This document shows, piece after piece, positions 1,518 through 43,004 of a stretch of 64,000 nucleotides of DNA (the stretch's first letter is position 1; every line of letters begins with the position of its first letter). The notes under the pieces were generated by a model. That model saw only the letters and a list, made by a program, of their open reading frames with translations, searched no databases and was not told the origin of the DNA. The translations under genes were made by a program, and so were the position numbers. Source of the stretch: Candidatus Diapherotrites archaeon ADurb.Bin253 (GTDB taxonomy: Archaea > Nanobdellota > Nanobdellia > Pacearchaeales > GW2011-AR1); NCBI GenBank assembly GCA_002069705.1, contig MWBV01000001.1, positions 21,768-85,767 of the forward strand. Direction: 5' to 3'.

Positions 1518-1579
1518 ACTATATAACGCAAGAATTATCTGTTTAAATACCTTTTGTATACTTATTAATTAAAACTATA

Positions 1580-2953: not shown

Positions 2954-2996
2954 AAAACAAGAATTCCAACAAACTATAAAAGATTTTCTAAGGTAA

Positions 2997-26356: not shown

Positions 26357-28218
26357 ATAAAAAAATCTTATTTATATTTCTCGTATTGCTTATTTTACCA
26401 TTGAGCTCTGCTGCACATTATATTATGGGATTTGTTGAAGATGCAAAAGATGGAACTAGTGCTGATGGACATAGTATAATCCTTTGGAATCCTATTATAG
26501 GAATTCAAGAAAACATAAGTGATATAATTGGTCCTCTTGGAAACTCTGGAACAAACAATAAGTATACGATTGATTGTGAACTTTTGCCAAGCGGATGTAA
26601 TGTGACAAATACATTAAGTTTAAAGGTGATAAATAACGGGGATAATTATGTTTCACAAGAAAAAAATGTTAGTGTTAGTGTATTAGGATATGATGTTGTA
26701 GAAAATATAACATTAAATTCTCCTCCAAATACTACTCTGATTTATCCAACTGATTTTGAAAAGATTCCATATTCTGAAGTAATGTTTAATTGTTCAATAG
26801 AAGATTTAGATAATAATGCAAAAGAAATTAGTTTATATGGAAACTGGACAGGGGCATGGGAACTAAATGAAACCCAAGAAATCAGTTCGGGGGATAAATT
26901 CAAAACATTTATTAAAAGCATTGCAGATGGTTTCTACAAATACGCTTGTAAAGTAACAGACAGTTTACTAATCTCTAGTTTTTCTCTACAAAACAATAGC
27001 TTTGCAATAGATACAAACATTCCTCTAATCCAATCTATTTCTTCTAATGTTTCTAGCTTGTGTGGTAAGACAAATACAATACAAATAAATTGTACTGCTT
27101 ACGATGAAACATCAGGAATAGATAAAGTAATAATACAATCTATTTCTCCACAGAATGAAATAAACAATTACAGTGCAAATAATATTTATGATAACATCTA
27201 TTCTTATGAAATACTGCTTGATAAAATTGGAACATGGAATTTTAATTGTATAGCTAATGATAGTGCAGGAAATTACAACAATTTGTTTTTAAATGATATA
27301 AATGTTTATTCTGAACTCCCTCAAATAAGCATAAATTCTAGTTCAATTAATCTAAGCAAAACAAATCCTATTGAAACAGAAGAAATACAAATTTCTGCTT
27401 TTGTGGAGAATAAAGGATGTTCTAATGCAGAAAATGTAGTTGTTGTATTTTTTAATGGAGATCCAGAAATTTCTGGAGAGAAGATAGGAGAGAGTGTAAT
27501 AAATATAAGCGAAAATGATGGGCTTGTATCTAGTATTTCTTGGAGCACTAAAATTGGGCTAAATAATATTTTTGTTATAGGAGACTATTACAATTCTTTT
27601 GATGAAGAGGATGAAACAGACAATAAAGCAAATAATACATTTTCCATAAATTCTTGGCAAGAAATATATGGGAACACACAAGTAGATAAGGTTATTGGGG
27701 GAGACCAAGTTGAAATAAAAAAATGGTTTAATGAAAGTTATTTAGAAGGAAGTATTTTTGTAGCAGATTCTGAGTCAGATATCAACTGGTTGTCTTTAAA
27801 ACCAATAGGAAGAAAAAAAGATGGACAAAAAAGTTCAGAAGATTTTTTAGAAATAGATGAAATACTCGGGATGACTTTTTTTGAAGATTCTGTTTCTAAT
27901 GTCTTTTCTGAAAACCAAGAACCAAAAGAAACCAGAGATATGATTATTTATCAAAAAGAAATAAAAAATGTCCCGATAATTAATTCTACAGAAAACTCAG
28001 ATTTTATAACTGGTTTACTTTGGGATAGTTCAGATGACTCTTATAATGGAGAATTTGATAGTGAAGATAAAGAAGATATAGTATTTGTTACACCAATAAT
28101 TAAAAATTCTCCTGGGAAATATGGAATTTATGATTATGAGATAAGGATACCTTCAAAATTAAGAGAATACAATAAATTGAATATTGAAGAAGTTTATCTA
28201 TATTATGAACTTAATTAA
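26353..28218 (+). CDS. Secreted protein, paralog of 21951..23144 with a longer C-terminal region
   Basis: 621 aa. Its N-terminus is near-identical to 21951..23144 at both protein and nucleotide level. The stop shares the palindrome TTAATTAA with the convergent ATPase gene. Confidence 0.6.
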   Translation: MNKKILFIFLVLLILPLSSAAHYIMGFVEDAKDGTSADGHSIILWNPIIGIQENISDIIGPLGNSGTNNKYTIDCELLPSGCNVTNTLSLKVINNGDNYVSQEKNVSVSVLGYDVVENITLNSPPNTTLIYPTDFEKIPYSEVMFNCSIEDLDNNAKEISLYGNWTGAWELNETQEISSGDKFKTFIKSIADGFYKYACKVTDSLLISSFSLQNNSFAIDTNIPLIQSISSNVSSLCGKTNTIQINCTAYDETSGIDKVIIQSISPQNEINNYSANNIYDNIYSYEILLDKIGTWNFNCIANDSAGNYNNLFLNDINVYSELPQISINSSSINLSKTNPIETEEIQISAFVENKGCSNAENVVVVFFNGDPEISGEKIGESVINISENDGLVSSISWSTKIGLNNIFVIGDYYNSFDEEDETDNKANNTFSINSWQEIYGNTQVDKVIGGDQVEIKKWFNESYLEGSIFVADSESDINWLSLKPIGRKKDGQKSSEDFLEIDEILGMTFFEDSVSNVFSENQEPKETRDMIIYQKEIKNVPIINSTENSDFITGLLWDSSDDSYNGEFDSEDKEDIVFVTPIIKNSPGKYGIYDYEIRIPSKLREYNKLNIEEVYLYYELN

Positions 28219-30551
28219 TCTTTTTTTGGAGAGGATTCTTTAATAAAATTATTCAATATTTCTACTATCTTTGATTTTTCAACCTCTGCTAAAATTTTCT
28301 TGGATAATTCTGGTGAAACTTGTTCTGCCCATTTTGCAATATCGTGACGTTTAGAATTAACATGTATCTTGAAAACAGCTAATTCTATACCCGGCAATGT
28401 TTCAGCTAATTCTTTTAATGAAGATATCATTATTCCATTATCAAATGTAAGTGGTTTGAGTATTTTTGTAGATATGTTTTCTGCTTCTACTTTCTTTTCT
28501 TCTATTTTCTTTTTCTTTAATTCTTCTTTTTCATATATTGCTCTAGCTTTCCTTGCCTCTTCTACAGATTTCTGAATTTCTGAAGCGTCTATAAGTTTCT
28601 TTTCTAATTTTTTTGGTTTCTTACCTAGTTTTTCCCATTGTTTCTGTAACCTAGGTCCTATTCCTTCTATATAAATATCAACTACAGAAAAATTACCACT
28701 CATTAATTTGTCTTTTATTAATTTCAATTCCATCTTTAAATCAAATGTATCTATTTTTTCTTTTTCTAATTGTTCTATTTGATTATCAAAGTCATCAATT
28801 ATTTCATTATATTTATTGTATTTCTCTAGCTCTTCATCTGAAAGTCTTCTTGTGTTGTGTAAAATAGGTCTAAAATTTATGAAGTAGGGTTTACCTTTAT
28901 TATATGCTGTATTAACAAACATTCCAACTCCAACAGATGCTTTAACTAAGGACTGCAAAAATTCCTCTCCATATTTTATTTTTATTCTTCCTAAATCTCC
29001 TTCATCTCTTGTTCTCATTTGTATTTCTGTGTTAATATTTGCTTTAATTTCTCCTACAAAGTCACTTAAAACCTGAGAAACTAACATAACTCCAATTCCC
29101 CATTTTCTAAATTCTCTACATGCTCTTTCGATTTGTAAAAATCCTTCTCCACTACCTCCAAACTTTGAAAGTAATCTATGTACCTCGTCAAAAACTAATA
29201 AAACTTTTAAATCAGGGGTTTCCTTTGGATCTGATTTAAATATTTGTCTTATAGCACTAGCAACAAAAATATCCATATCATTTGGATCAAGTTTATTTAA
29301 TGCAAATATTTGTATTTGTCCAGGATGTATGAATCTTTCTATGTCTATTACTTCTCTAGCATGGGAGATTTGTCTAATGTTTCCAAAAAATGCTCTGGCA
29401 TCAGAGGGTTTTAATCCAAATTTTGGATAATAAGAAAGCATTTTTTTATCTTCGCATTTTCTAAGCATACCTGACCACTGAGCTGTTGGGTCAAATACAA
29501 TTACTGCGACATTTTTCATTAAAGCCTCTTCTATTAATACCTGGGCAGCAATACTCTTTCCTCCTCCTGTAGCTCCAGCAACAATACTATGTGTTTTTAA
29601 TTTTTCTGGTTCCAAGCAAGCTTTAATTTTTGTTTCTGCTATAAGCCCAAGAGATAAATTTTCTTTAGAGGGCATAGGAAGTTTTTTTGTATCTAATTCC
29701 ATACGATATTTCTTTGAAAGTTTTATACGTCTTTTGATTAGGAAATAAATGAGTAAAAATAATAAAATCATTCCTATTCCAGAAAACAAAAGCCAAAGAG
29801 GTAAGAATCCGAATAAAAGCCTACTGAAAAAAGGCTTTCTAATTACAAAATAGCTCAAGGCAGGAATTAATTCATTATTATATACTGCAGATAATTGAAG
29901 TATATATTCTCCTTTTTCTATTTCTGGAGGCATTTCAAATTCTTTTAGGTGATAAAAAGAATTAGTAAAATTAAAACTCTCCTGGCCTAAGAAATAAGAA
30001 TCGTTTTTTGTGTTGTTCAAAGAATAAGAAAGAACTATTTCGTCAAATTCTCCAGAATTTATCCTATATAAATATACTTTAAATTTAAGTTTTTCATTTA
30101 ATTTAAAATATTTTTTATAGGGTTCTACTTGAACAAAAAAAACCGGATTTAGGTCTGATTCCACTACTCGAATATTTACAAGTATCCTTTCATTAACTCC
30201 TCCTGAAATAAGTATCTCTCCAGAGTAATTTCCAATCCTTGCACCTTTAATATAAAAGTACATTGCAGAACTGTTTTTTGGAAATATTTCAATTCCAGAA
30301 GATTCAAATTCAAGTAATTCCATCACATTACCTGAAGAAGAAAATGTTGCAGAGATAGGTTCGTTCCTAAGATTGTTCACAATAATAAAATCTTGGAAGA
30401 GTGTTCCCACTTCTACACTTCTATCTACTTTGCTCCTAGAGACAACATATCCTTCTCTTTGTATCTCGTCTCCATATGCAGATTCTGCTATAATCATCTG
30501 AGAAAAGAATAAGATAAAAAAGAGTATTAGTAAAAATTTTTTTATTTTCAT
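28215..30551 (-). CDS. Single-pass membrane protein: extracellular beta-sandwich domain fused to a cytoplasmic HerA/VirB4/FtsK-superfamily ATPase (paralog of 8567..11965)
   Basis: 778 aa. Signal peptide, ~240-aa ectodomain, TM LFGFLPLWLLFSGIGMILLFLLIYFLI, then an ATPase domain with Walker A HSIVAGATGGGKS and Walker B LLVFDEVHRLL. The ATPase domain is mostly identical to ATPase1 over ~380 aa, and shared nucleotide strings show through (e.g. acctgaccactgagctgttgggtcaaatacaattactgc). Confidence 0.7.
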   Translation of the reverse strand: MKIKKFLLILFFILFFSQMIIAESAYGDEIQREGYVVSRSKVDRSVEVGTLFQDFIIVNNLRNEPISATFSSSGNVMELLEFESSGIEIFPKNSSAMYFYIKGARIGNYSGEILISGGVNERILVNIRVVESDLNPVFFVQVEPYKKYFKLNEKLKFKVYLYRINSGEFDEIVLSYSLNNTKNDSYFLGQESFNFTNSFYHLKEFEMPPEIEKGEYILQLSAVYNNELIPALSYFVIRKPFFSRLLFGFLPLWLLFSGIGMILLFLLIYFLIKRRIKLSKKYRMELDTKKLPMPSKENLSLGLIAETKIKACLEPEKLKTHSIVAGATGGGKSIAAQVLIEEALMKNVAVIVFDPTAQWSGMLRKCEDKKMLSYYPKFGLKPSDARAFFGNIRQISHAREVIDIERFIHPGQIQIFALNKLDPNDMDIFVASAIRQIFKSDPKETPDLKVLLVFDEVHRLLSKFGGSGEGFLQIERACREFRKWGIGVMLVSQVLSDFVGEIKANINTEIQMRTRDEGDLGRIKIKYGEEFLQSLVKASVGVGMFVNTAYNKGKPYFINFRPILHNTRRLSDEELEKYNKYNEIIDDFDNQIEQLEKEKIDTFDLKMELKLIKDKLMSGNFSVVDIYIEGIGPRLQKQWEKLGKKPKKLEKKLIDASEIQKSVEEARKARAIYEKEELKKKKIEEKKVEAENISTKILKPLTFDNGIMISSLKELAETLPGIELAVFKIHVNSKRHDIAKWAEQVSPELSKKILAEVEKSKIVEILNNFIKESSPKKD

Positions 30552-32446
30552 TTTTCTGTTCTCCCTTTTTGAATGCTTGTATCTTTTTTTTGTTTATTTT
30601 GTTCTTCTTTAGATTCTTTAGATTCTTTAGGTTCTTTAATCTCTTTTTTTTCTGGGGTGTTAACTTTAGGTATTTCCTTGGAATCTTTAGTGAAGGAATT
30701 GTACAAATCACTTATCTCTTTTTTTAATCTTTCTCTATCATCAAAAACCTCTTTAGGAATTGGTTCGCGATAAATATCTTTTATTTTTATAAATAATTTA
30801 AGTGCTTCATCCTCTTTATTTTGTTTTATTAAACTCTTTAATCTATTTAACATTATATACAACTCCAAAAGCCTTTCTTTCTTTTTGTCTCTTTTGTGCT
30901 TTACCATCAATATTGCTAAAAGTATTGCCACTAAAAGTATTAAAAAAGAGATAGAACCTATCTTGAAGAAAGATGCAAAATTGAATCTTGTACCTACCTC
31001 AAAAGGAACTGAATCTATAGCTATGTTCTTTTCATCTGAAGCTCTGGCATATATTAAATAATTTCCTTCAGGAGTTAGACTTGGCACTTGTAATTCTCTT
31101 TCAAGAAAAACATTGTAAAAAAACACTATTTCTTCTTCTGAAAAGTTGTACACTTTTCCTTCATAATCTTTTATAGCATAGTACAAAGAAGCATTAACTT
31201 CTTTTAAATCCTTAATATTAAATAAGCTTATATTAAATTTGATATTTTTTCCTGGTTTAACTAAAGAATACCCTTCAGATAAATTTAAAATCAAATCAAA
31301 CTCTAAATCTATTGCTTGAACATCTAATACTGTGGGAATTGACTTATTTACTTTGGGAGATTTCACATCTATATATCCAAAATATTGTCCAGGAATAGTT
31401 CTTTCTGGAGCGTAAAAATCAATAGTAATTTCTTTTGATTTTCCTGGAAGAATAGTTATGTTTGTTTCGCTAAAAATTGTGAAATTGTTTATTTTTCTTG
31501 AAGAAAGATGGATTGGAATCTCTTCTAATCCTGTATTTGTTATCTTTAAAACTCTTGTTTTTGAAGAACCTTGTTTCAAAGAAACCCTTAATTCTGATAT
31601 ACTAAGCTGAAAGTTTTCAGATTTTCTTTTTTGAATTTCTATTTTACTTAAAATTCTATCCACTAGCCGAGATGGATCTTTACCAGAATCTCCACTGCTT
31701 CCTCCACCCCCAGAATATCCTCCAGGTATTTGTTGGGTAGAAACAACAAATGATTGTATGGGCGTAAGGTTCATATTTTCAGAAGTATCGAATGCATAAA
31801 ATCTCCAATAAACAGTATTTAATGGGGGTGCTCTTATTTGAATGTTACGAAAAGAGACGTTTTCTAATCCAGAAAAATTTGTAGAAGAATAATTTTCCCA
31901 TCCTGCTCCTTGGTTTATTGAGAAGATATATCTGCCTAACCCTCTGTCATCTGTCCAATTTGTTACAAATGTTATTATGTCATTTTGATAAACTGTTTGT
32001 TTACTTATATTTGGGGAAGACCAGTTAGGGGGGGAAGAATCTAATCCCACATATAACATAACTACATTACTAAGGGTATCATAAATAGAATCTGAAGCAT
32101 AAAAAGTTACGTTCCTAGTCCCCGTAAATCCTTCTCTTGGAAAAAAAGAAACTTCATTTGTTAAGGGGTCTATAAATACATAAATATCTTCTACAGAAGA
32201 ATTATAGTATGAAAGATTTGGAGAATCTGCATCTGAGAAATAATCATCTAAATCAAATGCATTTAAATGATTTTGATTCTCTGGCCAGCTTTGGTTTGGA
32301 ATGTCCTTTATAAGAAACGGGGGAGAATTAGGAATATCTAAACTAGTTAAGATATCAGCAGATACAAATTGTAAAAAACAAAATAAAATTACAAATATCA
32401 TCTGTAAATATTTTTTCCCCTCTTTTAAAAAAAATGAAAATCTCAT
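30548..32446 (-). CDS. Surface protein with beta-sandwich domain, TM and conserved cytoplasmic tail; translationally coupled upstream partner of ATPase2
   Basis: 632 aa. Signal peptide, GGGGSSG linker, TM IGSISFLILLVAILLAILMV, tail ...LNRLKSLIKQNKEDEALKLFIKIKDIYREPIP. Overlaps 28215..30551 by 4 nt. Confidence 0.6.
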   Translation of the reverse strand: MRFSFFLKEGKKYLQMIFVILFCFLQFVSADILTSLDIPNSPPFLIKDIPNQSWPENQNHLNAFDLDDYFSDADSPNLSYYNSSVEDIYVFIDPLTNEVSFFPREGFTGTRNVTFYASDSIYDTLSNVVMLYVGLDSSPPNWSSPNISKQTVYQNDIITFVTNWTDDRGLGRYIFSINQGAGWENYSSTNFSGLENVSFRNIQIRAPPLNTVYWRFYAFDTSENMNLTPIQSFVVSTQQIPGGYSGGGGSSGDSGKDPSRLVDRILSKIEIQKRKSENFQLSISELRVSLKQGSSKTRVLKITNTGLEEIPIHLSSRKINNFTIFSETNITILPGKSKEITIDFYAPERTIPGQYFGYIDVKSPKVNKSIPTVLDVQAIDLEFDLILNLSEGYSLVKPGKNIKFNISLFNIKDLKEVNASLYYAIKDYEGKVYNFSEEEIVFFYNVFLERELQVPSLTPEGNYLIYARASDEKNIAIDSVPFEVGTRFNFASFFKIGSISFLILLVAILLAILMVKHKRDKKKERLLELYIMLNRLKSLIKQNKEDEALKLFIKIKDIYREPIPKEVFDDRERLKKEISDLYNSFTKDSKEIPKVNTPEKKEIKEPKESKESKEEQNKQKKDTSIQKGRTEK

Positions 32447-32548
32447 TTACCCTCTATTTTAGTTATTATCTACCTATTTATTTAAACCTTATTAAAAAAA
32501 TACTCTAAAAAAAGAAACCTTTATAAAGTACCTAATGGTTTTTATATA

Positions 32549-32752
32549 ATGCCTAAAAAAGACCTAAATGATACTAAATACAAAAGCGCTACTGTTAAAG
32601 GAACTATCCCATTTAATCAAAAAGAGGCAATAAGAAAATTGATTGGAGTCATAGGTAGCAATGAACAAGATGTGGTTGGAAAAATAATAACTCTCTGGTT
32701 ATATAATGAAGGGTATCTAACAAATAAAAATAAAAAAGGAGAGTCAAAATGA
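32549..32752 (+). CDS. Small hypothetical protein
   Basis: 67-aa ORF ending 4 nt into the next gene. No recognisable motifs. Confidence 0.25.
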   Translation: MPKKDLNDTKYKSATVKGTIPFNQKEAIRKLIGVIGSNEQDVVGKIITLWLYNEGYLTNKNKKGESK

Positions 32753-35700
32753 AAGGCAAGATATTTCTGATATTTTTGGTATTCTCTTTATTGATTATGT
32801 CTCCAATTACTATTGGAGCAGATGGAGAGATTAACAATCCAGAAGATAATCCAAATTCTGAATTAAATGAAGATAATAATAATAAAAATCAAGAAAACAC
32901 TGAAACAACAAATGCAAATAGTTCTTCTGAAGATTTAAACAAAGTTATAGATGAAGTACAAAAACAAAATATAAACGATGATGAAAATAATGAAAGTAAT
33001 TCTGATAAACAAGATATAAACGATAATGAAAATAATGAAAGTAATTCTGATAAACAAGATATGGAAGATGGTTCTAATGAATCTAATTCAACAGAGATAG
33101 AATTGGAGAATTTATCTTCACAAGAAAATTCTGTATATATTTCTTCGAATAATATCTCACCTCCTGAAGAACCCAAAGAGGAACAACCTGCTGCATTGCT
33201 TGTTGAATCTTCAAAAGAAGAGAATTCTGGTCCTTGTTGGGGATATGATGCTCTTGGGAAAAAGGTGATAAAGATAGAAGACTGTGAGGAGGGAGATATA
33301 GAAAAAATTAAACCACTAGAAGAGCTTGAGATAAGTGAATTTGAAAAAGAGGTGATTGTCTCAAGTAAAGAAGATTTCAATAAACCAATTAGAGTTTATA
33401 GTATTTTAACAAAAGAAGCAAATAAAGAAGAAATAAAGATATTCTGGAAAAACGAAAACAACTTAGAGATAACTCAAGATGAATCTTTTTCTGTTGAATA
33501 CTATGATAAAAATGAAAATGGATTAATAGATAAGGTTTCTTGGATAGTCCCACACTTAAGTGAGCAAAAATTTAAGATAATAGTTGAAATTGAAAATCCT
33601 AAAGAATCTACAGAAGAACTTTTACTAAATGTTACTGGACCTTCTGGACAAACCAGGAATCCGATAAATTTCAATATAGAAGTTAATTATTCTGGAAATT
33701 TTAATTGTAATCTCAAAATCGGAAATGAAGAAGCTCTTGCTTTTTCTTCTAACAAAAATTATAGTTTAGACCTTCGAGATGGAGATTATAATTGGGAAGT
33801 TATCTGTTATGATAGTGTTGATGGAACAAATTCGTCAATTACCAATGCCACATTTGGTGACTTTTCTGTTAATGAAGGTGTTTATTATACTAACTTAACT
33901 GAAGGAAAATTATATTTTTTGGATTTAATACAAAACAAAATACAAAACCCTGAAACAATAACAATTAATTCGACAAACCCTTCTAACTACACTATTAAAA
34001 TAAAAAGAAATGAACAAGAAATTTATACAAAGGAATCGTTTAATAATACAAACATTCTGATGAATGAATTAATACTAAGTTCTGCTGGAAATTATACTTT
34101 AAGTGTTAAATTTAAAGAACCTTCTCCAGAATATGAAATTCTTAAGAACTTTTATGTAGCAAGTGCAAATATAACTTTAAATGCAACTTCTGTTGAAGAA
34201 GGTAAACCTGTTAAGATAACTGCTATAGGTAACTCTCAAGATAAAGCCATTTCTACTATAATAATTGATTATGGAGATGGAACTAGTGATTATAATCATA
34301 TAAATGCAAATTCTTTTTCAAAAGAGTTTGTTAAAACATACAACAAAAACGGAAATTACAATATAAAATTATTTATAACAATTCCTGGAGAAGATACATT
34401 TAATATTATCAAAAATGGATTAGTTGTTACAAAACCTACAACACCTACAACCCCAAAAGATGAGAAATCTCCAGAAATTGAATTATTATATCCTGAAGAT
34501 AAAGAGATATTTGAAGTAAATCATGTAAACTTTTCATATAAAGCTAGTGATGATGTTAAAATACAAAATTGTACATTTAAATTATATGAAAATTGTGCTT
34601 CTATGACTACTTGTTCTACAAGTGAATCTAATTTATTGTACCAATCATTCGCAGATGCAAATAACTTTTCTGGTCAAAAAAATAAAGAAATTAGAGTAAA
34701 TTTAAATAAATTTAATGATGGAATTCATTTATGGGAAGTAGAATGTTATGATAATTCTTCAAATAATGCTTGGGAAAGGGGTTTTTTAAAGATTAAAGTA
34801 AATGAAAGTCAAACATCAACTACTCAAAATTATTCTCAAAAAGCAGAAATAGATAGGCTAAAAGAAATTGCAGATCACTTTATTACAAAAAGTTTCAGCT
34901 TAGAAGAAAAAGAGGTTTTAGAAGACCTTATACTCCTTGAAGATACAAAGTATTACAAAAAAAGGCTCTTAGATATTGAAAATTTCTTTAGGGAGAATTA
35001 CAAATATGTTTCAAGTGAAGAATTAAGAAACAAAAAAACAGAGGAATACTTAACTGAATTAAATGAAATAAAAAACAAGATACCTAAAGAAATATCTATT
35101 AAAGAAAACTATGAATATGTTAAGAACAGTGTAGAAACAGATTTTGAAGATGTTATAAAAAGCTATTTTGACTCAACAAATACTCAAATCAGTAAATCTT
35201 CTCTTAAAAAATTAGCAACTATAAATAGAGAATTACAAAATGACATATCTATATCTACAAAAGTTAGGAAAGTGGAGATAGAGTATAATAATGGTACACA
35301 GGAGATAATATTAGTAAAGAAAAAAATTGATTTAAATGATGATTCCCATGAAAGAATATTAGAAATAATCCCTAAAGAAGTCCTAGAAAATAGTGATGAT
35401 GTTTTTTTCTTGGTTGATAGCAAAGTGATTCAAAAAGACCCTATTTTTGAAATAGATTACGATGACTTGGAAAAAGGAGAAATTTTATATTACTTAACTA
35501 AAAAAATAAAGATAAAGGATATAGAAAAAACAGAAACAATACTTTTTGAAGATAATTTAAATAAATTTGAAAGGGGGGTCACAGGACTGTTTATTCTTGA
35601 ATTTGCTTCAATAGATAATACAATTTATTTTGTGCTTATTTTTGTTTTGTTAGTTGTTTTAATCTCTATGGTATTTTTTGTGATTAAAAAATTCAAGATG

Positions 35701-36054
35701 ATTGGTTGGAAAAAAGAACCCAATGTTGTTAGGGTGCTAAATTTAATTGAAGATGTAAAAAGAGCACTTAAAGAAAAGGACATAGAGAGAGCAAGGGAGA
35801 AATATTATAAGATAAAGGAAATATATCCTGTATTGCCTTCAAAAACTAAACCCTATTTTTATGAAAAAATAAAAGAAATGTTGATTAGGATAGATAGAAA
35901 AGATATTTTTGGGTTAGTTAAAGAATATCAAGAAGCAAAAAGAAAATGGAATAAAGAAGAGGTTCTTAGATTGTACGAAGATATTAGAAAAATCTATGAA
36001 AGATTACCTGAAAAAGACAGGAAAAAAGTATATGGTATAATTAATGGATACTAA
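32749..36054 (+). CDS. Giant (1101-aa) surface protein with an acidic tandem repeat, a domain shared with the other giant surface proteins, C-terminal TM and a conserved cytoplasmic tail
   Basis: Signal peptide; 45-nt tandem repeat at 32971..33060 encoding INDDENNESNSDKQD twice. Domain IKIFWKNENNLEITQDESFSVEYYDKNENGLIDKVSWIVPHLSEQKFKIIV matches 15887..21349. TM IYFVLIFVLLVVLISMVFFVI; tail ...AREKYYKIKEIYPVLPSK... Confidence 0.65.
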   Translation: MKGKIFLIFLVFSLLIMSPITIGADGEINNPEDNPNSELNEDNNNKNQENTETTNANSSSEDLNKVIDEVQKQNINDDENNESNSDKQDINDNENNESNSDKQDMEDGSNESNSTEIELENLSSQENSVYISSNNISPPEEPKEEQPAALLVESSKEENSGPCWGYDALGKKVIKIEDCEEGDIEKIKPLEELEISEFEKEVIVSSKEDFNKPIRVYSILTKEANKEEIKIFWKNENNLEITQDESFSVEYYDKNENGLIDKVSWIVPHLSEQKFKIIVEIENPKESTEELLLNVTGPSGQTRNPINFNIEVNYSGNFNCNLKIGNEEALAFSSNKNYSLDLRDGDYNWEVICYDSVDGTNSSITNATFGDFSVNEGVYYTNLTEGKLYFLDLIQNKIQNPETITINSTNPSNYTIKIKRNEQEIYTKESFNNTNILMNELILSSAGNYTLSVKFKEPSPEYEILKNFYVASANITLNATSVEEGKPVKITAIGNSQDKAISTIIIDYGDGTSDYNHINANSFSKEFVKTYNKNGNYNIKLFITIPGEDTFNIIKNGLVVTKPTTPTTPKDEKSPEIELLYPEDKEIFEVNHVNFSYKASDDVKIQNCTFKLYENCASMTTCSTSESNLLYQSFADANNFSGQKNKEIRVNLNKFNDGIHLWEVECYDNSSNNAWERGFLKIKVNESQTSTTQNYSQKAEIDRLKEIADHFITKSFSLEEKEVLEDLILLEDTKYYKKRLLDIENFFRENYKYVSSEELRNKKTEEYLTELNEIKNKIPKEISIKENYEYVKNSVETDFEDVIKSYFDSTNTQISKSSLKKLATINRELQNDISISTKVRKVEIEYNNGTQEIILVKKKIDLNDDSHERILEIIPKEVLENSDDVFFLVDSKVIQKDPIFEIDYDDLEKGEILYYLTKKIKIKDIEKTETILFEDNLNKFERGVTGLFILEFASIDNTIYFVLIFVLLVVLISMVFFVIKKFKMIGWKKEPNVVRVLNLIEDVKRALKEKDIERAREKYYKIKEIYPVLPSKTKPYFYEKIKEMLIRIDRKDIFGLVKEYQEAKRKWNKEEVLRLYEDIRKIYERLPEKDRKKVYGIINGY

Positions 36055-36096
36055 AGAACAGCAAATCTTAAAAAAGCAACACTTTCTTAAATAAAT

Positions 36097-36600
36097 ATGG
36101 AATTTAAAAAAAATTGGATATTCCTGTTTGGATTGGTTTTACTTTTTCTACTTGCAGGATCTGTTCTTGCTGCACCTAATTATGACCAAAAAGTATACAG
36201 AGTAGATTCAAAATTAAAAAATAATTATAATTCTGAAAGATGTTCTAACTGTTATAATTATAATAACTATGAATGGGATTATGGAAATCAAAATAGAGAA
36301 ATTGTGCGTAGTGATAATTATGGATTTAGAAACTACGATTCCTATAAAAGTGAAAAAACAAAAAAGAGTATTTTTGGAGATTATATTAAAGAATATTCAG
36401 TTCAAATTAGAAATAGGGGATATACTGGGAGATATTTTACAGTAGTCTTTAAATTAAAAGATAAAAATGGTTTTGAATTCACTCAATCAATTACCAAATA
36501 CCTGAGAGATGGAGAAAGTAAAAAATTCGTATATAAAGACATTCAATATGAAAGACATGAAATTCTTAATTGGAGCTACTCTATTGTTCCTGGAAAATAA
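36097..36600 (+). CDS. Small secreted protein
   Basis: 167 aa. Signal peptide IFLFGLVLLFLLAGSVLAA, N/Y-rich. Confidence 0.4.
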   Translation: MEFKKNWIFLFGLVLLFLLAGSVLAAPNYDQKVYRVDSKLKNNYNSERCSNCYNYNNYEWDYGNQNREIVRSDNYGFRNYDSYKSEKTKKSIFGDYIKEYSVQIRNRGYTGRYFTVVFKLKDKNGFEFTQSITKYLRDGESKKFVYKDIQYERHEILNWSYSIVPGK

Positions 36601-36725
36601 AAATGCCTCTAGGGGCTTAAAAAAGGCCTATTTTTAGGGTGCGTACAATATACATTATACGAAGTTTTAGGTGATTTTTTAGTGTTTTTTGGGAATTTGA
36701 GAGATTTTGTCTATTTTATATGATA

Positions 36726-37961
36726 ACTTAGGTTAGCTTTGTTATCTGTGCTGGATTTCTGAGTCCTCTTTTTTATAATCTGGAAGTAAATGATTTGCTA
36801 AACGAAAAAATCTATATTCTACTTCTTTTAGTTCTTTTGATTTGAATTGAACTGTTTTACAATCTTTTGCACTTAGGTTAGCTTTGTTCTTTTCCAATAA
36901 TAATTCGTGTTCTTGGAGTAACAGTAACTTGTATATAATATCATATTTATTCTCTTTTCTTATTCTCTTTTCTTGAAAAGTATAAGGGATAATTAATAAT
37001 TAATAATTAACAATATGATGAACCTGGTTGATTGAAATTTTTATATTCTAAATCCTGTTCATTTTTATCTTTTAAATCTGGTTTATTTATACTTAGGTTA
37101 GCTTTGTTATAAAGACAGTTTTTAAGATTGAGTTGTTTAATATTGTTATCTGAATATTTAGCTAACCTTAAAATCAATTCTAGATGGGTTATTTCTTCAT
37201 TTAAATGGGTTATTTCTTCATTTAATTGTCCTATTCTGTGTCTTGTATATGAGGTAATTTTAGTTATAATTTCTTCTGAAGAACCAGTAGATAAATTAGA
37301 GTAATCTCCATAGCATGCTGGACATTCTATTATATTATGGGACCCTCTGCCATAAATAACAAGATATGTGCCATCTAAGGGGCATCTTTTATTAGATAAT
37401 TTATCTCCAAAATCTAAAAAAACTGTCTCCTTTTTTCCCTCTAAACCAACAAATAGATATTCTCTTTTTTCTCCAGGATTTCCTATATCAAAAAGCTCTT
37501 TTGGTACTTCTTTTATTAGGTCTTTCATTAAGGTTAAAATCTCTCCCTCTTTTTAAGGATTTGTTGTTCAAGAAATACAATTACAAAACTAAAATCCAAA
37601 TTTTAAAAAAAATGTGTTCTGGGGCATTTTTAAATAAAATGTGTTCTGGGACATTTTGCACTTAGGTTAGCTATGTTATTTGCTAAATTTGAGAATATTT
37701 TAGGAGATGTAAATTGAAAAAAAAGATGAATTAAATGGCCTGAAATCTGGAGTTATAGGAATTATTTTTTTAATATCTTTGAAATATATTTGAATTAAAA
37801 AAAGAAAGAGGGAAATTTTAAAGGGGTTTTTGAGGTGTTTTTTTGGTGTTTTTTGAAATGATTTTTGGAGTATTTTTTGGGGCGTTTTTTGAATAAATTT
37901 TGCTCTAAAAAAATGATAGAATTGATTTTTATAAAATCTTTGAACTTAGGTTAACTTAGTT
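36726..37961 (+). repeat. Five dispersed direct copies of the 18-nt motif ACTTAGGTTAGCTTTGTT
   Basis: Copies at 36726..36743, 36871..36888, 37091..37108, 37660..37677 (one mismatch) and 37944..37961 (degenerate), all in the same orientation with irregular spacing. Confidence 0.7.
37007..37528 (-). CDS. Hypothetical protein with CxxxG...CPAC zinc-ribbon-like motif and an internal 7-aa duplication
   Basis: 173 aa. RCPLDG...ECPACYG, and LNEEITHLNEEITH encoded by the direct repeat gggttatttcttcatttaaat x2 near 37185..37225. One copy of the 18-nt motif lies inside its 3-prime part, so protein-coding status is uncertain. Confidence 0.3.
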   Translation of the reverse strand: MKDLIKEVPKELFDIGNPGEKREYLFVGLEGKKETVFLDFGDKLSNKRCPLDGTYLVIYGRGSHNIIECPACYGDYSNLSTGSSEEIITKITSYTRHRIGQLNEEITHLNEEITHLELILRLAKYSDNNIKQLNLKNCLYNKANLSINKPDLKDKNEQDLEYKNFNQPGSSYC

Positions 37962-37984
37962 TTAAAAAAAATGTGCTGGAATCT

Positions 37985-38140
37985 ATAAAAAATGTGCTGG
38001 AATGCTGTTTAAACAGCTGTTTTTTTGGTTTTATCGACGTAAAAATAAATAAAGACAAAGGATAAAAACAGGCTGTTTATAATGTTCAAACAGCTGTTTG
38101 TGTCTGTTTAGGGCTGTTTAAACAGCCTGTTTTCCATTAA
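37985..38140. promoter_or_regulatory. Cluster of CTGTTTAAACAG palindromes (candidate operator or iteron sites)
   Basis: gctgtttaaacagctgttt near 37986, ggctgtttataatgttcaaacagctgttt near 38071, and gggctgtttaaacagcctgttt near 38112. The half-site GTTCAAACAG recurs inside the next gene. Confidence 0.45.
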
Positions 38141-38291
38141 TTTTTTAGACAAACACCCCTGCTTTTTTAAATAAAAATGTTCAAATCTTTGCTAAAAAAT
38201 TCTCTGTAAATAAAGAAAAATAAACAAGTAAAAATAGTTTTTATATCGATAAAAGCAAAACATTTTTAAACTAGATATTATAACATATAAT

Positions 38292-38927
38292 ATGTTTGGA
38301 TGGTTTTCTTGGAAAAAAGAAAGTAAAAAGATAAGAGATGATACAAAGACAGGATTTGAGTTTGTTAAAAAAGATATCTCATCTCTAACTGGCTGGATTA
38401 AACACCTTGATTCTGAAAAAAATATTCAAAAAAGAGATATAGATCAGATAAAGTATGATTTAGCGTCTATAAAAAATGAAATTGAATCTATAAAAAATGT
38501 TATTTCGATTATGAACAATTTAAAGCCGAAGCAGGTGTTTAAAACAAACAGGGGGCTGTTGGATAAACAAACACCTGTTTATGCTGTTCAAACAGGTGTT
38601 CAAACAGGTGTTCAAACACCAAATTTAGACCAATTTTCTGTTACAGAAAGAGCAATATTATGGATTCTATTAAACGCGGATATGAAGTTAGGATATGATG
38701 ATTTATCTACAATATTAGGAAAGGAAAAAAGCACTATAAGAGGGCAGATAAATGCTATTAAGTCAAAAAGTGAGGGATTGATAGAAGAGAGTATTGAGAA
38801 AAATGGTAAGAAAAGAGTGTTTATATCTGAAGAAATAAAGGAAAAAATGCTAAAAAAGTCAAAAGTGAGAGTTGGAGGATCTAAAAATATGAAGAAATAT
38901 GAGAAAAATGAAGAAAAAAACACTTAA
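38292..38927 (+). CDS. Coiled-coil protein with QTG-repeat linker and C-terminal winged-HTH domain (putative DNA-binding regulator)
   Basis: 211 aa. N-terminal coiled coil, the linker VQTGVQTGVQT encoded by gttcaaacaggtgttcaaacaggtgttcaaaca, then HTH-like FSVTERAILWILLNADMKLGYDDLSTILGKEKSTIRGQINAIKSK. Confidence 0.5.
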   Translation: MFGWFSWKKESKKIRDDTKTGFEFVKKDISSLTGWIKHLDSEKNIQKRDIDQIKYDLASIKNEIESIKNVISIMNNLKPKQVFKTNRGLLDKQTPVYAVQTGVQTGVQTPNLDQFSVTERAILWILLNADMKLGYDDLSTILGKEKSTIRGQINAIKSKSEGLIEESIEKNGKKRVFISEEIKEKMLKKSKVRVGGSKNMKKYEKNEEKNT

Positions 38928-39151: not shown

Positions 39152-40012
39152 TTATAATTCTCTTAATTTAAAAATTGTTGGAAGAGTAGCTATCTTTTTA
39201 AGATTAGGAGAGATAGAAAGGCGAATTGATTTGTTGTTTATTTTAGTTTTTTCGACGGGAATTCCTTTTTTTATTAATCTCCCTATGTAATCTCTAATTG
39301 AACTTTCTGTCAAACCTAATTTTATTGAAAGGTTCTTATAATCTGTATATCCATTTTCTTCAGAAAGCTGATAAATTGTTGAAAAAACTGAAAATTCTTG
39401 GTCTGTTAATCTCTTAAATTTTAATCTAACTTCTTTCTTCAAATTATCCAAAGAATCTAGTATTTTTGTAGCATCTCCTATATAATCTTCTGATAATTTA
39501 CTTATATGTATTTCTTCTGGATTATACGAACTTTTATCTGTCTGTTGGTTTGTCTGTTGGTTTGTCTGTCTGTCTGTTGGAACCCCTCTATTTCCTGTGG
39601 AAAGTATGGTATTTTCACCCTTTAAGGCGTTATAAGGGGGTTTTTGTGTTGGATATGTTGGATAACTAAAAGTATCTGTTGGAATATTTTGTCTTTGTGC
39701 TGGATGTGCTGGATATGCTGGATTGGCCCTATGAAACATAAAACACATTGGAAAGTTGGTATTATTGGTATTGAATGGGCATGAATAGGAAATGTTATTT
39801 TGAAGGGGTTCTTTTTTTTGGGAAATTGTTTCGTTTAAAAATTCTTTTCTTAGCAAGTCTTCATTTTTTTTATTGATTGTTTTAAGAACATCACATATTT
39901 CTATTAATCTTTGACGAATTTCATTCAATTCTTCGCTTAAAGAAGATGCTTCTTTCTTGAGAATGTTTATGTCTTGCTTAACTTTAGAAAAAGCCTCTTT
40001 TACGTGTTCCAT
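39152..40012 (-). CDS. Coiled-coil protein with QTN-repeat linker and C-terminal winged-HTH domain; architectural paralog of 38292..38927
   Basis: 286 aa. N-terminal coiled coil, P/Y-rich region, RQTNQQTNQQTD linker, then HTH-like LTDQEFSVFSTIYQLSEENGYTDYKNLSIKLGLTESSIRDYIGRLIKKG. An ORB-like element is embedded at 39583..39604. Confidence 0.5.
   Translation of the reverse strand: MEHVKEAFSKVKQDINILKKEASSLSEELNEIRQRLIEICDVLKTINKKNEDLLRKEFLNETISQKKEPLQNNISYSCPFNTNNTNFPMCFMFHRANPAYPAHPAQRQNIPTDTFSYPTYPTQKPPYNALKGENTILSTGNRGVPTDRQTNQQTNQQTDKSSYNPEEIHISKLSEDYIGDATKILDSLDNLKKEVRLKFKRLTDQEFSVFSTIYQLSEENGYTDYKNLSIKLGLTESSIRDYIGRLIKKGIPVEKTKINNKSIRLSISPNLKKIATLPTIFKLREL
39583..39604 (-). promoter_or_regulatory. 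ORB-like origin recognition box (inverted copy)
   Basis: cccctctatttcctgtggaaag is the reverse complement of CTTTCCACAGGAAATAGAGGGG, matching the two copies upstream of orc1. Confidence 0.45.
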
Positions 40013-41154: not shown

Positions 41155-41289
41155 ATGAGAGATAAAAGTAAATAATTTATAAACTTTTCTGTGAAAATGT
41201 ATAATTGTTAAAAAATCAAAAAAGAGCTAATTTCATATAAGCGAACCCTCCCTCCCCTTTATTTCTTATGGAAATATTTATAAAGAAAT

Positions 41290-41640
41290 ATTTTATATTT
41301 TTTTATTTTTATTTATTTTAAAAAAATATATATAATAAATAATATATAATGGACAATATATAATAAATGAATTGAACAAATTACACAAAATAAGTGAAAT
41401 AAATGAAATAAATAATATGTAATGAATAATAAATAATAAACGAGTTGTACAAAATAGATTAATTACATAAAATAAAATAAACAATATATGATAAATAATA
41501 AACTAATTATATAATATATAAATAAATTAAATAAATTAAATAAATAATATATAATAAACTAGTTATAGTATATATAAATAAGATAAATAAGATAAATATA
41601 CTATCAAATAAGTAAAATTTTCTTAAATATACTTAATTAT
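41290..41640. promoter_or_regulatory. Extremely AT-rich tract with AAATAAAT-type periodic repeats; putative duplex unwinding element of oriC
   Basis: ~350 bp almost devoid of G/C (aaataaattaaataaattaaataaataatatataataaa...), directly upstream of the ORB pair and orc1. Confidence 0.5.
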
Positions 41641-41646
41641 TATATA

Positions 41647-41671
41647 TTTCCACAGGAAATAGAGGCGTTCC
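41647..41671 (+). promoter_or_regulatory. ORB-like origin recognition box 1
   Basis: TTTCCACAGGAAATAGAGGCGTTCC: dyad TTTCC-ACA-GGAAA followed by a G-rich element, resembling the archaeal ORB (GTTCC-AGT-GGAAAC + GGGG). Confidence 0.55.
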
Positions 41672-41743
41672 TCTTTGTTAGTAGTTATAATCTTTTATAT
41701 AATCTTTAATTTTTTTTCATCGATAACTTAAGGAGGAATAAAG

Positions 41744-41770
41744 TTTCCACAGGAAATAGACGTGTGAGTC
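41744..41770 (+). promoter_or_regulatory. ORB-like origin recognition box 2
   Basis: GTTTCCACAGGAAATAGACGTGTGAGTC, same orientation as box 1, 20 bp upstream of the orc1 ATG. Confidence 0.55.
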
Positions 41771-41789
41771 TTAGCTTAAATTAATTAAA

Positions 41790-43004
41790 ATGAAGTTGGA
41801 TATAGATAAGATATTTGATAGCTTTGATAAAAATAATATCTTTAAAGATAAAACTATTTTGCAATCAAATTATTCTCCTAGTGAAATCCCTCATAGAGAA
41901 GAACAGATAAAGCAAATAGCTTCTATTTTAGCTCCTGTTTTAAGAGGTGAAAAAACCAGTAATCTTTTTTTATATGGAAAGACAGGAACAGGGAAAACTC
42001 TTGCAATGAGATTTGTTCAGGAAGAATTGTATAAGAGGGTTAAGAAAGATGCTGATTTTAAACTTAAAATTGAATATTTAAATTGTAAGATGAAGAAAGT
42101 TTCTGATACAGAATATCGGATTTTAGCTGAATTAGTTAAAAAAATGGGGGGAGATGTTCCTTTAACAGGTTTACCAACACAAGCAATTTATAATAAATTT
42201 ATAGAAACAATTGATTCTGAAAAGAATTTGGTTGTACTTATTTTAGATGAAATAGATCAAACTGTTAAGAAAATTTCAAGTGATTTTTTATATAGTCTTG
42301 TTAGATTAAACTCAGAATTATCTAAATCTCAAATATGTCTTGTTGGAATAAGTAATGATTTAAGATTTTTAGAAGAGTTGGACCCTAGAGTTAGAAGTTC
42401 TTTGTCTGAAGAAGAAATTCTTTTTCACCCATATAATGCACTTCAAATACAGGATATTCTTAATCAGAGAGCAGAATTGGCATTTAAAGAAGGGGTTTTA
42501 CAGGAAGGGGTTATCAATAAATGTGCTGCACTGGCAGCAAAAGAACATGGTGATGCAAGGAGAGCATTGGATTTACTAAGAGTAGCAGGAGAATTAGCAG
42601 AAAGAGATAATTCTAAGAAAATTTTATTAAAATATATAGATAATGCTAATGAAAAAATAGAAAAAGATAAAATTTTGGAAACTATTTCTTCTGAACCAAA
42701 GCAATTTCAGTTGGTTTTAGGTTCAATTATTTATCTTTTAGAACACCAAAAAAACGATTTACCTGTTTTTACAGGGGAGGTTTATGATTTTTATCAGCAA
42801 CTTTGTCTTAAAAATAGATTGGAGATTTTAACACAAAGAAGAGTTGGGGAGATTATTCAAGAATTAGATATGTTGGGTATAATTAATGTAAGAGTAATTT
42901 CAAAAGGAAGAGGAGGAAGAATGAGAGAAATAAAGATGGCAATATCTAAAGAAATTACCAACAAAGCTAAAGAAATAATAGAAAACTCTCTTAATTATGT
43001 TTAA
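41790..43004 (+). CDS. orc1: Orc1/Cdc6 replication initiator (AAA+ plus C-terminal winged helix)
   Basis: 404 aa. Walker A LFLYGKTGTGKT, Walker B VLILDEIDQ, sensor regions, C-terminal wHTH. Confidence 0.93.
   Translation: MKLDIDKIFDSFDKNNIFKDKTILQSNYSPSEIPHREEQIKQIASILAPVLRGEKTSNLFLYGKTGTGKTLAMRFVQEELYKRVKKDADFKLKIEYLNCKMKKVSDTEYRILAELVKKMGGDVPLTGLPTQAIYNKFIETIDSEKNLVVLILDEIDQTVKKISSDFLYSLVRLNSELSKSQICLVGISNDLRFLEELDPRVRSSLSEEEILFHPYNALQIQDILNQRAELAFKEGVLQEGVINKCAALAAKEHGDARRALDLLRVAGELAERDNSKKILLKYIDNANEKIEKDKILETISSEPKQFQLVLGSIIYLLEHQKNDLPVFTGEVYDFYQQLCLKNRLEILTQRRVGEIIQELDMLGIINVRVISKGRGGRMREIKMAISKEITNKAKEIIENSLNYV

Follow-up and report, generated by a model that had tools for sequence, protein, structure and literature searches.

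The window analyzed here is a stretch of 64,000 nucleotides (nt) of archaeal DNA (Candidatus Diapherotrites archaeon ADurb.Bin253, contig MWBV01000001.1, forward-strand positions 21,768 to 85,767), and all coordinates given below are counted from its first nucleotide. About 3.3 kb from its replication origin (oriC) the window carries a tandem array of small minus-strand genes, which is found throughout the lineage and extends from a dif-like site to the control region of a divergent gene for a protein of 211 amino acids (aa), p211. Each array gene joins a variable N-terminal domain to a C-terminal tail through a motif of 24-26 nt that is read in frame. The reading that we favor, at even odds (a probability of about 0.5), is that recombination in a hyperplastic gene array uses this motif as its fixed, in-frame joint. 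It is carried by the specificity of the motif for this locus, its constraint at the level of nucleotides, the anatomy of the gene joints, and the reassortment of gene parts at the motif.

Specificity and Conservation of the Motif

The core of the motif is the 18-mer ACTTAGGTTAGCTTTGTT (plus strand). A first-pass annotation of the window had described five copies of it in the same orientation, with spacings of 145, 220, 569 and 284 nt, and this description is accurate. The copies at positions 36726, 36871 and 37091 are exact, the one at 37660 has a single mismatch, and the one at 37944 has two. These five matches compare with 0.12 expected; no further copy was found elsewhere in the 64 kb, and none is inverted. 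The 18-mer lies within a longer conserved sequence of 24-26 nt, which reads TTnTGC-ACTTAGGTTAGCTTTGTT-AT on the plus strand and (T/G)AACAAAGCTAACCTAAGTGCA(C/A)AA on the minus strand, and is translated in frame as NKANLS.

Scans for the exact 18-mer returned 115 metagenome stretches and 43 genome stretches. Syntenic with the window are 69 of the metagenome stretches and about 25 from species-representative metagenome-assembled genomes (MAGs) of Woesearchaeota, Pacearchaeota and Nanoarchaeota. In all syntenic loci the motif is located between the homologues of p211 and of a 167-aa protein (p167), in the orientation of p211 and cdc6, and the flanking proteins are 39-91% identical to those of the window, with Cdc6 down to 59%. 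When 598 kb of related loci were scanned with a position weight matrix, 218 motif copies were recovered, all of them within the p167-p211 interval; none of the 218 was located outside this interval or inverted. The search elsewhere that the first pass had proposed thus finds the 18-mer to be specific to the locus and not a genome-wide repeat.

Exact 18-mers off the syntenic locus are present in a gene of the Nitrososphaeraceae (25 loci), a gene of a Gemella-like group, a viral gene, and a dispersed repeat with a GC-rich hairpin in one bacterial MAG (CBFGYT01; loci L143, L145 and L158). In the conserved genes of soil Nitrososphaeraceae (L034 and others) and of the Gemella-like group (L141 and L168) the 18-mer is also in the NKANLS frame. 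Their number is close to chance (about 17-48 are expected in the genome collection), and these matches are coincidences in unrelated organisms. Whereas single exact 18-mers occur in such organisms too, two or more 24-mers in the same orientation were seen only at this locus in the scanned collections, and such pairs can therefore mark the locus in metagenomes.

In the NKANLS frame, the six third-codon positions of the motif are 97-100% invariant. The rare variants fall on first and second codon positions, where they change amino acids or create a stop codon, and they are mainly transversions, not changes of the wobble type. Two of the six motif codons are AAC, ending in C in a genome of about 28% GC, and in 29 of 144 copies an A for T at motif position 15 turns the lysine codon AAA into the stop codon TAA. 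Moreover, copies are found outside any open reading frame (ORF): this is the case for three of the copies in the window (c1, c4 and c5 in the numbering used below), and a relative (L151) has three motif copies with no ORF of at least 50 aa between them. The invariance of synonymous sites, together with the copies outside ORFs, shows that the motif is constrained primarily as nucleic acid, and that the reading frame is preserved in addition. The motif has no dyad symmetry and no pair of inverted recombinase arms. Its similarity to dif is limited to the TTGTGC of the right arm, and its core GTTAGCT matches the integron core GTTRRRY at six of seven positions.

Some loci show a single motif copy, many of them on truncated contigs. 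In a sister clade of Nanoarchaeota (L179-L182; p211 about 49% identical) the motif has diverged to TTGTGCACTTAGGTGTGCTTTGTGAATA, and in L182 it is unrecognizable. The arrangement of xerA, dif, small minus-strand ORFs, p211, oriC and cdc6 is unchanged in the sister clade and is therefore old, and co-variation of the motif with its neighbors in this clade might reveal the protein that reads the motif. The clade also has, close to the origin, an additional gene of 519-575 aa.

Gene Joints and the Inter-Gene Module

We compared 84 distinct units of a motif copy and the following ORF, from about 70 loci. The ORF (60-190 aa) most often starts 103-105 nt after the copy, and the sequence in between is a conserved module of recognizable parts: a stretch with a T5 tract and with stop codons in every frame, then ATATAAATT(A/C)TTAAAAAAG, about 22-25 variable nt, and the ATG. 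The second box of the module is similar to the TATA-like boxes located at about -24 to -36 of apparently leaderless genes of the window, including p211. Because of this match, we interpret the module as a putative terminator followed by a putative promoter.

At their other end, 49 of the 56 ORFs that reach the next motif read through it in a single open frame, as NKANLS(A/E). This bias is significant both per ORF (P = 6e-17) and per family (P = 1e-4), and it involves at least 13 unrelated families. The array ORFs fall into about 26 families without BLAST links, among which hhalign joins only FAM4 to FAM6; shared ancestry of the cassette proteins was therefore rejected as the reason for the shared frame. 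The C-terminal tails that follow the motif belong to recurring types (..KVVQFKSKEQKEAEERFYHLADHLFPD.., ..PEPxIVDKSK..RETxFT..SRLNH, and ANSEYIQNIKKKIPSGQASLL). Their nucleotides differ at synonymous sites between species, which indicates that the tails are real, translated peptides.

Nearly all array genes are ORFans in Pfam and PHROGs. When functions of the cassette proteins were sought in Pfam, PHROG and NCBIfam, the only matches were to DUF5654, to an HNH-like nuclease and to a pyrimidine-dimer glycosylase, and these came from some of the relatives; signatures of toxins or immunity were not detected among these proteins. In 26 complete arrays the distance from dif to p211 is 818-1818 nt, with one to five motif copies and zero to three genes, and the array of the window (1652 nt) is typical in this respect. 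The motif copies of relatives are 75-813 nt apart.

The first-pass annotation had also suggested that the stretch might hide a gene for a small RNA, and of this there is no sign. The stretch has no tRNA, no tmRNA and no Rfam match at gathering thresholds, a scan by E-value gave only chance-level matches, and RNAalifold applied to 15 inter-gene modules predicted a consensus of two pairs (-0.03 kcal/mol) with no covariation. On these results the hidden small RNA was rejected. An attachment site of a virus or plasmid was likewise rejected, as the scan of viral contigs gave only two unrelated coding matches.

Reassortment at the Motif

The same parts are found in different combinations in different species. 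The N-terminal domain of FAM1, the family of the main array gene of the window, is joined to at least six types of tails. Conversely, unrelated N-terminal domains can share a tail: the one that ends in ..GQASxL follows domains of FAM1, FAM4, FAM5 and FAM7, and the one that ends in ..SRLNH follows those of FAM1, FAM2, FAM7 and FAM13. Gene order within the arrays varies between species, and comparisons between loci reveal mosaics at the level of cassettes, in which matching cassettes have non-matching neighbors. The cleanest close pair consists of L113 and L086: the two sequences share 96.9% identity over the stretch from p211 up to and including the proximal motif, and immediately past ...CCTAAGT(A/G)CACAAAG they split into unrelated genes. 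Reassortment between species has affected N-terminal domains, tails and whole genes alike, its breakpoints lie at the motif, and the motif is at least a historical crossover point for the exchange of modules.

The array is variable and changes fast between relatives, and at the same time the motif stays identical, or nearly so, in about 70 loci. The much stronger conservation of the joints, compared with the genes that they connect, suggests a built-in spot for gene swapping.

Organization of the Array in the Window

On the minus strand, the order of the parts is the p211 control region, copy c5, A-tracts, c4, the leader of a 173-aa gene (p173), p173 with c3, a variable segment, c2, a p51-type ORF, c1, A-tracts, and the dif-like site. 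The p211-proximal copy c5 (37944..37961, minus strand) is the variant AAAACTAAGTTAACCTAAGT with two mismatches, which recurs in relatives. Between c5 and c4 lies an ORF-less segment of 266 nt rich in A-tracts (37678..37943), with phased T/A tracts at about 37825-37900 that resemble the tract at 36665-36691 beside the dif-like site. Copy c4 (37660..37677, minus strand; one mismatch) forms the joint ahead of the p173 leader. Block 2 of the module in this leader contains a tandem duplication of 27 nt (37601..37654, minus strand), which is the AAAATGTGTTCTGGG pair. The two AAAATGTGTTCTGGG copies, at 37609 and 37636, are not significant as a motif, and the block is single in sister strains such as L108, the duplication being strain-specific. 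The first pass had listed two pairs of a motif AAAATGTG: the first pair is real, as this duplication, and the second lies outside the consensus given for it and consists instead of two AAAAATGTGCTGGAAT boxes (37967 and 37988). In block 3 of the module, the module alignment places the TATA-like box AAATCCTTAAAAAG (37549..37562, minus strand) 21-34 nt ahead of the p173 ATG, and this is the putative promoter box of p173.

The p173 gene (37007..37528, minus strand) encodes an N-terminal domain with CPLDG...CPxC, a long helix, the motif, and a tail. The exact copy c3 (37091..37108, minus strand) is in frame as N141-K-A-N-L-S146 of the protein. The family, FAM1, is conserved and restricted to the lineage. 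We found no match to p173 in Pfam, PHROG or NCBIfam, and its structure model (predicted local distance difference test score, pLDDT, of 50.6) was too poor for use in a fold search. The stretch had been described as non-coding, which is mistaken: p173 is called as a gene in 18 of 18 strain contigs and belongs to a conserved family.

The segment from the p173 stop codon to c2 (36898..37006, minus strand) has no ORF and is the part of the array that varies most between strains. The whole segment between c2 and c3 measures 188, 202 or 215 nt and is divergent between strains, compared with 98-100% identity in the other segments; the strain-variable part after p173 looks decayed. From the exact copy c2 (36871..36888, minus strand) to c1 runs an ORF of 51 aa (36742..36897, minus strand) that consists of an orphan p51-type C-terminal tail (NKANLS..KTVQFKSKE..). 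It is called as a gene in two of the 10 strain contigs of one set, and in relatives p51-type tails are joined to different N-terminal domains, with synonymous change. The last joint is c1 (36726..36743, minus strand), again an exact copy. Two runs of T/A tracts with a period of about 10-11 nt, at 36665-36700 and 37825-37900, are 89% identical to each other over 27 nt. The first adjoins the dif-like site and the second is part of the c4-c5 segment, which suggests either intrinsically bent DNA or a duplicated end of the array.

The dif-like Boundary and Its Recombinases

The distal end of the array is marked by GGTGCGTACAATATACATTATACGAAGT (36638..36665), a dif-like XerA core site whose inverted arms are separated by about 6 nt. 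About 30 relatives have kept the site between the p167 stop codon and the first motif copy, and only one such site was found per locus. By our own count the site agrees at 20 of 28 positions with the dif sequence of Escherichia coli. It also has the structure by which archaeal dif sites are defined, imperfect inverted repeats of about 11 bp, 6 bp apart, as in bacterial dif (PMC2958812).

In at least 23 related loci, a gene for a XerA-family tyrosine recombinase of 273-274 aa is located 0.2-5 kb from the dif-like site. The recombinase scores 252 bits on XerA_Arch (cutoff 220); on the integron integrase model TIGR02249 it scores 211 bits (cutoff 265), in two stretches. The XerA gene is absent from the 64-kb window and present in a strain variant (L015). 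The dif-like site is about 5 kb from oriC. The dif sites of Thermococcales are located 120-142 degrees from oriC (PMC2958812), and a dif-like site adjacent to the origin is therefore unexpected. A comparison, by eye, of the right arm of the dif-like site with the 5' end of the motif gave no clear pattern of co-variation.

Variable DNA borders the dif-like site on both sides, and its flanks look like an insertion hotspot. In L113 (oriented 1377-3301), the p167 homologue is separated from the array by an insertion with a gene for a small serine recombinase and a related HNH/IscB-like gene; the serine recombinase resembles the SCCmec Ccr recombinases at a sub-threshold level. Both genes have homologues in about 10 related loci (among them L089, L159, L036, L088, L055 and L167). 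An HNH-like gene of 155 aa occurs in at least 17 loci, and in the group of L166 and L114 it is found between p167 and the dif-like site.

The p211 Gene and Its Control Region

At the opposite end, the 330 nt ahead of p211 (37962..38291, plus strand; alignment of 19 loci) contain a series of blocks that different species have in common: a ATGTGCTGGAA box, palindromes of the form (G)CTGTTTAAACAG(C) in two to five copies, a TTTTATCGACGG box, and the TATA-like ACATTTTTAAAC. The control region of the window has two AAAAATGTGCTGGAAT boxes (37967 and 37988), which are conserved ahead of the 211-aa gene in relatives, GCTGTTTAAACAGC palindromes with half-sites (38004-38017 and 38113-38126), a TTTTATCGACG box, and ACATTTTTAAAC at 38260-38271, about 23 nt ahead of the p211 ATG. 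The palindrome CTGTTTAAACAG had already been reported in the first pass, and it is indeed present, exact at 38005 and 38114; a copy with one mismatch is located within the gene at 38584, and there are five matches compared with 0.21 expected.

The p211 gene itself (38292..38927, plus strand) is transcribed divergently from the array and belongs to a family with more than 2300 members. The protein is predicted to have a long N-terminal helix, a disordered linker and a MarR/ArsR-like winged helix, and the fold search returned only generic MarR/ArsR winged helices. Within the gene, three operator-like TGTTCAAACAGG repeats (38575..38620, plus strand) encode the linker VQTGVQTGVQT. Their nucleotides, including third codon positions, are conserved among 22 distinct sequences, and the linker peptide is invariant in the family; the repeats thus look like operator repeats embedded in a gene. 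The palindromes would be natural operator candidates for p211. The earlier proposals that they are regulator sites beside a helix-turn-helix (HTH) gene, and that a half-site continues into that gene, agree with these findings: the sites look like regulator sites and are kept across species, and the half-site within the gene is conserved even at synonymous positions. The palindromes would be operators of one of the adjacent winged-helix proteins, separate from the system of the 18-mer.

The Origin and Neighboring Genes

A canonical Orc1/Cdc6 gene is located at 41790-43004, followed by genes for PolD subunits, and oriC lies upstream of it, at about 41160-41790, where origin recognition boxes (ORBs; TTTCCACAGGAAATAGAGG at 41647 and 41744 on the plus strand and at 41256 on the minus strand) flank an extremely AT-rich stretch. 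The description of the array as origin-proximal was thus correct. The proteins of the window, which is AT-rich (about 28% GC), recur on many metagenome contigs and MAGs labeled Pacearchaeota, Woesearchaeota or Nanoarchaeota, including one contig of 801,691 bp, and the window is from a small-genome archaeon of the DPANN group (named after the Diapherotrites, Parvarchaeota, Aenigmarchaeota, Nanoarchaeota and Nanohaloarchaeota).

Three winged-helix genes adjoin the array in every locus compared, and a Rep-like HTH_36 protein is encoded near the array. The gene for p286 (HTH_36; ORF 39152-40012) contains a perfect ORB, TTTCCACAGGAAATAGAGG plus GG, at 39585-39603 on the minus strand, within the part that encodes a linker and about 1.7 kb away from the unwinding region. 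An ORB-like box in the same orientation is found within the p286 homologue in 46 of 46 related loci. The linker region of p286 also has CTGTCTGTTGG-type and TGTGCTGGA repeats on the plus strand (39540-39582 and 39698-39730), which are similar to two kinds of box in the p211 control region, CTGTTT and ATGTGCTGGAA, and may represent further binding sites embedded in coding sequence.

The strand-asymmetric component of the GC skew on the plus strand is +0.088 to the left and +0.087 to the right of oriC (about 41500), and at third codon positions it is +0.10 and +0.18, respectively. No switch of polarity is visible at oriC, 64 kb being too small a sample for interpretation.

The genes that precede the array (26353-36600) encode a HerA/VirB4/CedD-like ATPase (28215-30551), large proteins of no assigned family (26353-28218 and 30548-32446), a PKD-domain protein of 1101 aa (32749-36054), and p167, which has a hydrophobic segment at its N-terminus. 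Together these could form a surface or translocation apparatus.

Proposed Mechanism and Alternative Explanations

If the motif is a recombination joint, it would be kept invariant as a fixed, frame-preserving crossover point, either through recognition by some sequence-specific protein or by serving as the only homology that the modules share. Modules could then be exchanged or excised without breaking reading frames, with the T-tract ending the transcript of one gene and the TATA-like box starting that of the next. Our inference is that exchange is the function for which the motif is selected, and that the motif is read by a sequence-specific protein.

Several observations weigh against this interpretation. 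We found no reader protein or recombinase for the motif; the motif is not palindromic, it is not dif-like beyond TTGTGC, and it has no conserved hairpin. The XerA gene, the HNH gene and the serine recombinases of relatives are absent from the 64-kb window, and among 18 contigs of the species of the window we observe no gain or loss of genes. The arrays are small (0.8-1.8 kb, zero to three genes), unlike open-ended stores of cassettes, and the promoter and terminator roles of the module are themselves predictions from sequence. Finally, any invariant 24-mer in otherwise divergent DNA becomes a breakpoint, and the reassortment could therefore be a consequence of the conservation of the motif and not its cause, and the conservation could have another origin.

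Among the alternatives, the one that survives best, and that we regard as unlikely, is that the motif copies bind a conserved protein with an origin-proximal role in the chromosome, as a centromere-like loading array or as a polar fork barrier between oriC and dif, and that the small genes are incidental filler. It would account for the occurrence of the copies in a single orientation at a single locus between oriC and the dif-like site, for their persistence in the gene-less array of L151, and for the constrained distance of 0.8-1.8 kb between dif and p211. Other DNA sites of this region are located in coding linkers as well (the ORB in the p286 gene in 46 of 46 loci, and the repeats in p211), three winged-helix genes are always adjacent, and the GC skew does not change sign at oriC, a weak hint from 64 kb only. 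However, the uniform orientation is inherited with synteny and hence adds no independent support, the scanned neighbors include no gene similar to ParA/ParB or Tus, and some loci have a single copy, though many of those contigs are truncated. Moreover, a binding array leaves unexplained why the motif prefers open frames, and why it is followed at a fixed distance of about 104 nt by the next ATG, with a promoter-like module in between.

The fixed distance to the TATA-like box and the ATG is what one would expect if the motif were a shared cis-regulatory element that co-regulates the array genes, either as an operator or activator site of the next promoter or as an element at the 3' end of the mRNA to which a protein or an RNA binds. 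We consider this explanation rather improbable. The motif does fall in the last codons of most transcripts, just 5' of the T-tract, and a divergent regulator gene with its own operators adjoins the array. However, an invariant, non-palindromic site of 24 nt in loci whose Cdc6 is down to 59% identical would be unusual for an operator, and the predicted MarR/ArsR-like dimer suits the palindromes better than the 18-mer. A role in the RNA is disfavored by the variants, which are mainly transversions and not of the wobble type, and by the absence of a conserved RNA structure. Copies also persist without a downstream gene, and the junctions of the reassorted genes remain unexplained. Neither of these two alternatives explains the frame bias together with the reassortment of domains and tails.

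A constraint on the peptide, with NKANLS(A/E) as a functional linker or as a signal for sorting, secretion or processing in otherwise unrelated small proteins, is very improbable. It would fit the strong in-frame bias in at least 13 families, the conservation of the tails past the motif as peptides, and the location of genes for a HerA/VirB4-like ATPase and surface proteins near the array. However, synonymous positions are invariant, the AAC codons are fixed, and the variants that do occur change amino acids; the lysine codon has become the stop codon TAA in 29 of 144 copies, and copies are found outside ORFs (c1, c4 and c5 in the window, and those of L151). Least probable, and in practice already refuted, is the reading of the 18-mers as iterons, parS-like partition sites, a hidden small RNA or a CRISPR-like array (CRISPR, clustered regularly interspaced short palindromic repeats), since the copies, although direct repeats in one orientation close to oriC and to a gene for a Rep-like HTH_36 protein, are neither tandem nor helically phased, lie 3.3-5 kb from the unwinding region, differ in sequence from the ORB, are not palindromic, have no Rfam match or conserved fold, and are irregularly spaced with coding intervals and no cas genes among the scanned neighbors. 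The first-pass annotation, which had itself set CRISPR aside on good grounds, was thus largely right in what it observed, and in its interpretation it was right about the regulator palindromes alone.

A bolder possibility, which we put forward tentatively, is that a dedicated archaeal system beyond the known families recognizes the 24-mer. This system could be a machine for the site-specific, frame-preserving exchange of modules, an 'in-frame integron' that works with XerA/dif or with another recombinase or nuclease and diversifies small effector-like proteins of DPANN symbionts. Alternatively, it could be an oriented protein-DNA barrier or loading array located between oriC and an origin-adjacent dif; if so, these reduced genomes would have an unusual, possibly unidirectional, geometry of replication and termination.

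DPANN archaea have tiny genomes, dwell on hosts and are almost unculturable, and their variation and chromosome organization are largely obscure. The locus provides a testable handle on the plasticity of their genomes, namely ORFan modules swapped at an invariant in-frame joint, and if hosts or viruses are the targets of the swapped proteins, the array would have a bearing on host or virus conflict. The array, the dif-like site and the regulator gene near the origin recur across a whole group of DPANN archaea. In the sampled loci oriC, an ORB within a gene, operator-like repeats within a gene, and the dif-like site, often accompanied by xerA, are found within about 10 kb, and the location of a dif-like site next to the origin, at odds with what bacteria and Thermococcales would lead one to expect, prompts testable questions on how archaea terminate replication and resolve dimers.

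Comparison with Known Systems

With iterons, parS sites and Ter sites the array shares conserved multi-copy sites of about 20 bp near an origin or dif, and iterons and Ter sites are non-palindromic and oriented, too. The array copies differ in being neither tandem, phased nor palindromic, and in lying in frame at gene joints with a promoter-like module; no homologue of Rep, ParB or Tus was detected, the scan for ParB having covered the neighboring genes. CRISPR arrays are excluded by the spacings (145, 220, 569 and 284 nt, and 75-813 nt in relatives), by intervals that hold genes, and by the absence of cas; Pfam and NCBIfam scans of the neighbors gave only a weak, sub-threshold match of p88 to the Csa3 HTH domain. 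The Xer/dif system and the integrative mobile elements that exploit Xer and insert at dif (IMEX) are called to mind by the 28-bp site at 36638-36665 with its dif architecture, by the nearby XerA gene in relatives, and by variable DNA on both sides, as at bacterial dif sites. In contrast, the 18-mer resembles dif only in TTGTGC, and the site is about 5 kb from oriC, compared with 120-142 degrees in Thermococcales (PMC2958812).

Sedentary chromosomal integrons with homogeneous attC sites, such as those of Vibrio with their Vibrio cholerae repeats (VCRs), also have small, unrelated genes in the same orientation, each followed by a repeat unit of about 125 nt, a divergent conserved gene at one end, and gene content that varies between relatives. 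Despite this similar geometry, the tests for an integron failed because there is no IntI, the array-adjacent recombinase of relatives scoring as XerA, and because the array has no attC-like hairpin. The array further differs from an integron in that its genes have their own promoter-like boxes, that it holds only zero to three genes, and that its repeat is translated.

Repeats that recombine in frame are known from the shufflon (sfx and Rci), from the 17-bp direct repeats of Borrelia vls, and from the VENN/Rhs junctions of polymorphic toxins with their orphan modules. In these systems, too, a short conserved in-frame sequence bounds exchangeable parts, the frame is kept, and the copies are direct and irregularly spaced. 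However, these systems produce variants of one gene, whereas the modules of the array are unrelated to each other; the array has no inverted copies, no evident logic of expression site and silent copies, and no toxin or immunity signatures. A shufflon in particular needs inverted copies, and 0 of 218 are inverted.

The closest analogue in the working of the array appears to be the PeSL (promoter early stem-loop) cassettes of T4-type phages, conserved promoter-terminator cassettes through which ORFan genes are shuffled as modules (Arbiol et al. 2010, PMC2839356; PMC4122927). In both cases short conserved modules, which in the array would likewise combine terminator and promoter, lie between small, non-essential ORFan genes, and the breakpoints of insertions, deletions and replacements between close relatives fall within the modules, as in L113 compared with L086 and in the mosaics. 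In contrast to the PeSLs, the array is part of a cellular archaeal chromosome, at one fixed locus kept across lineages of Woesearchaeota and Pacearchaeota, and adjoins dif and xerA. Its putative signals are archaeal (a T-tract and a TATA-like box) and include no conserved stem-loop, and its most conserved part is a sequence of 24 nt within the coding frame, which permits in-frame swaps of N-terminal domains and C-terminal tails. We found no description of this locus in the literature on Woesearchaeota integrons, DPANN gene cassettes, or the origin and dif. What is new in the array, compared with these systems, is its nature as a single cellular locus, its conservation across related lineages, its ultraconserved core within the reading frame, and its place beside dif, xerA and oriC.

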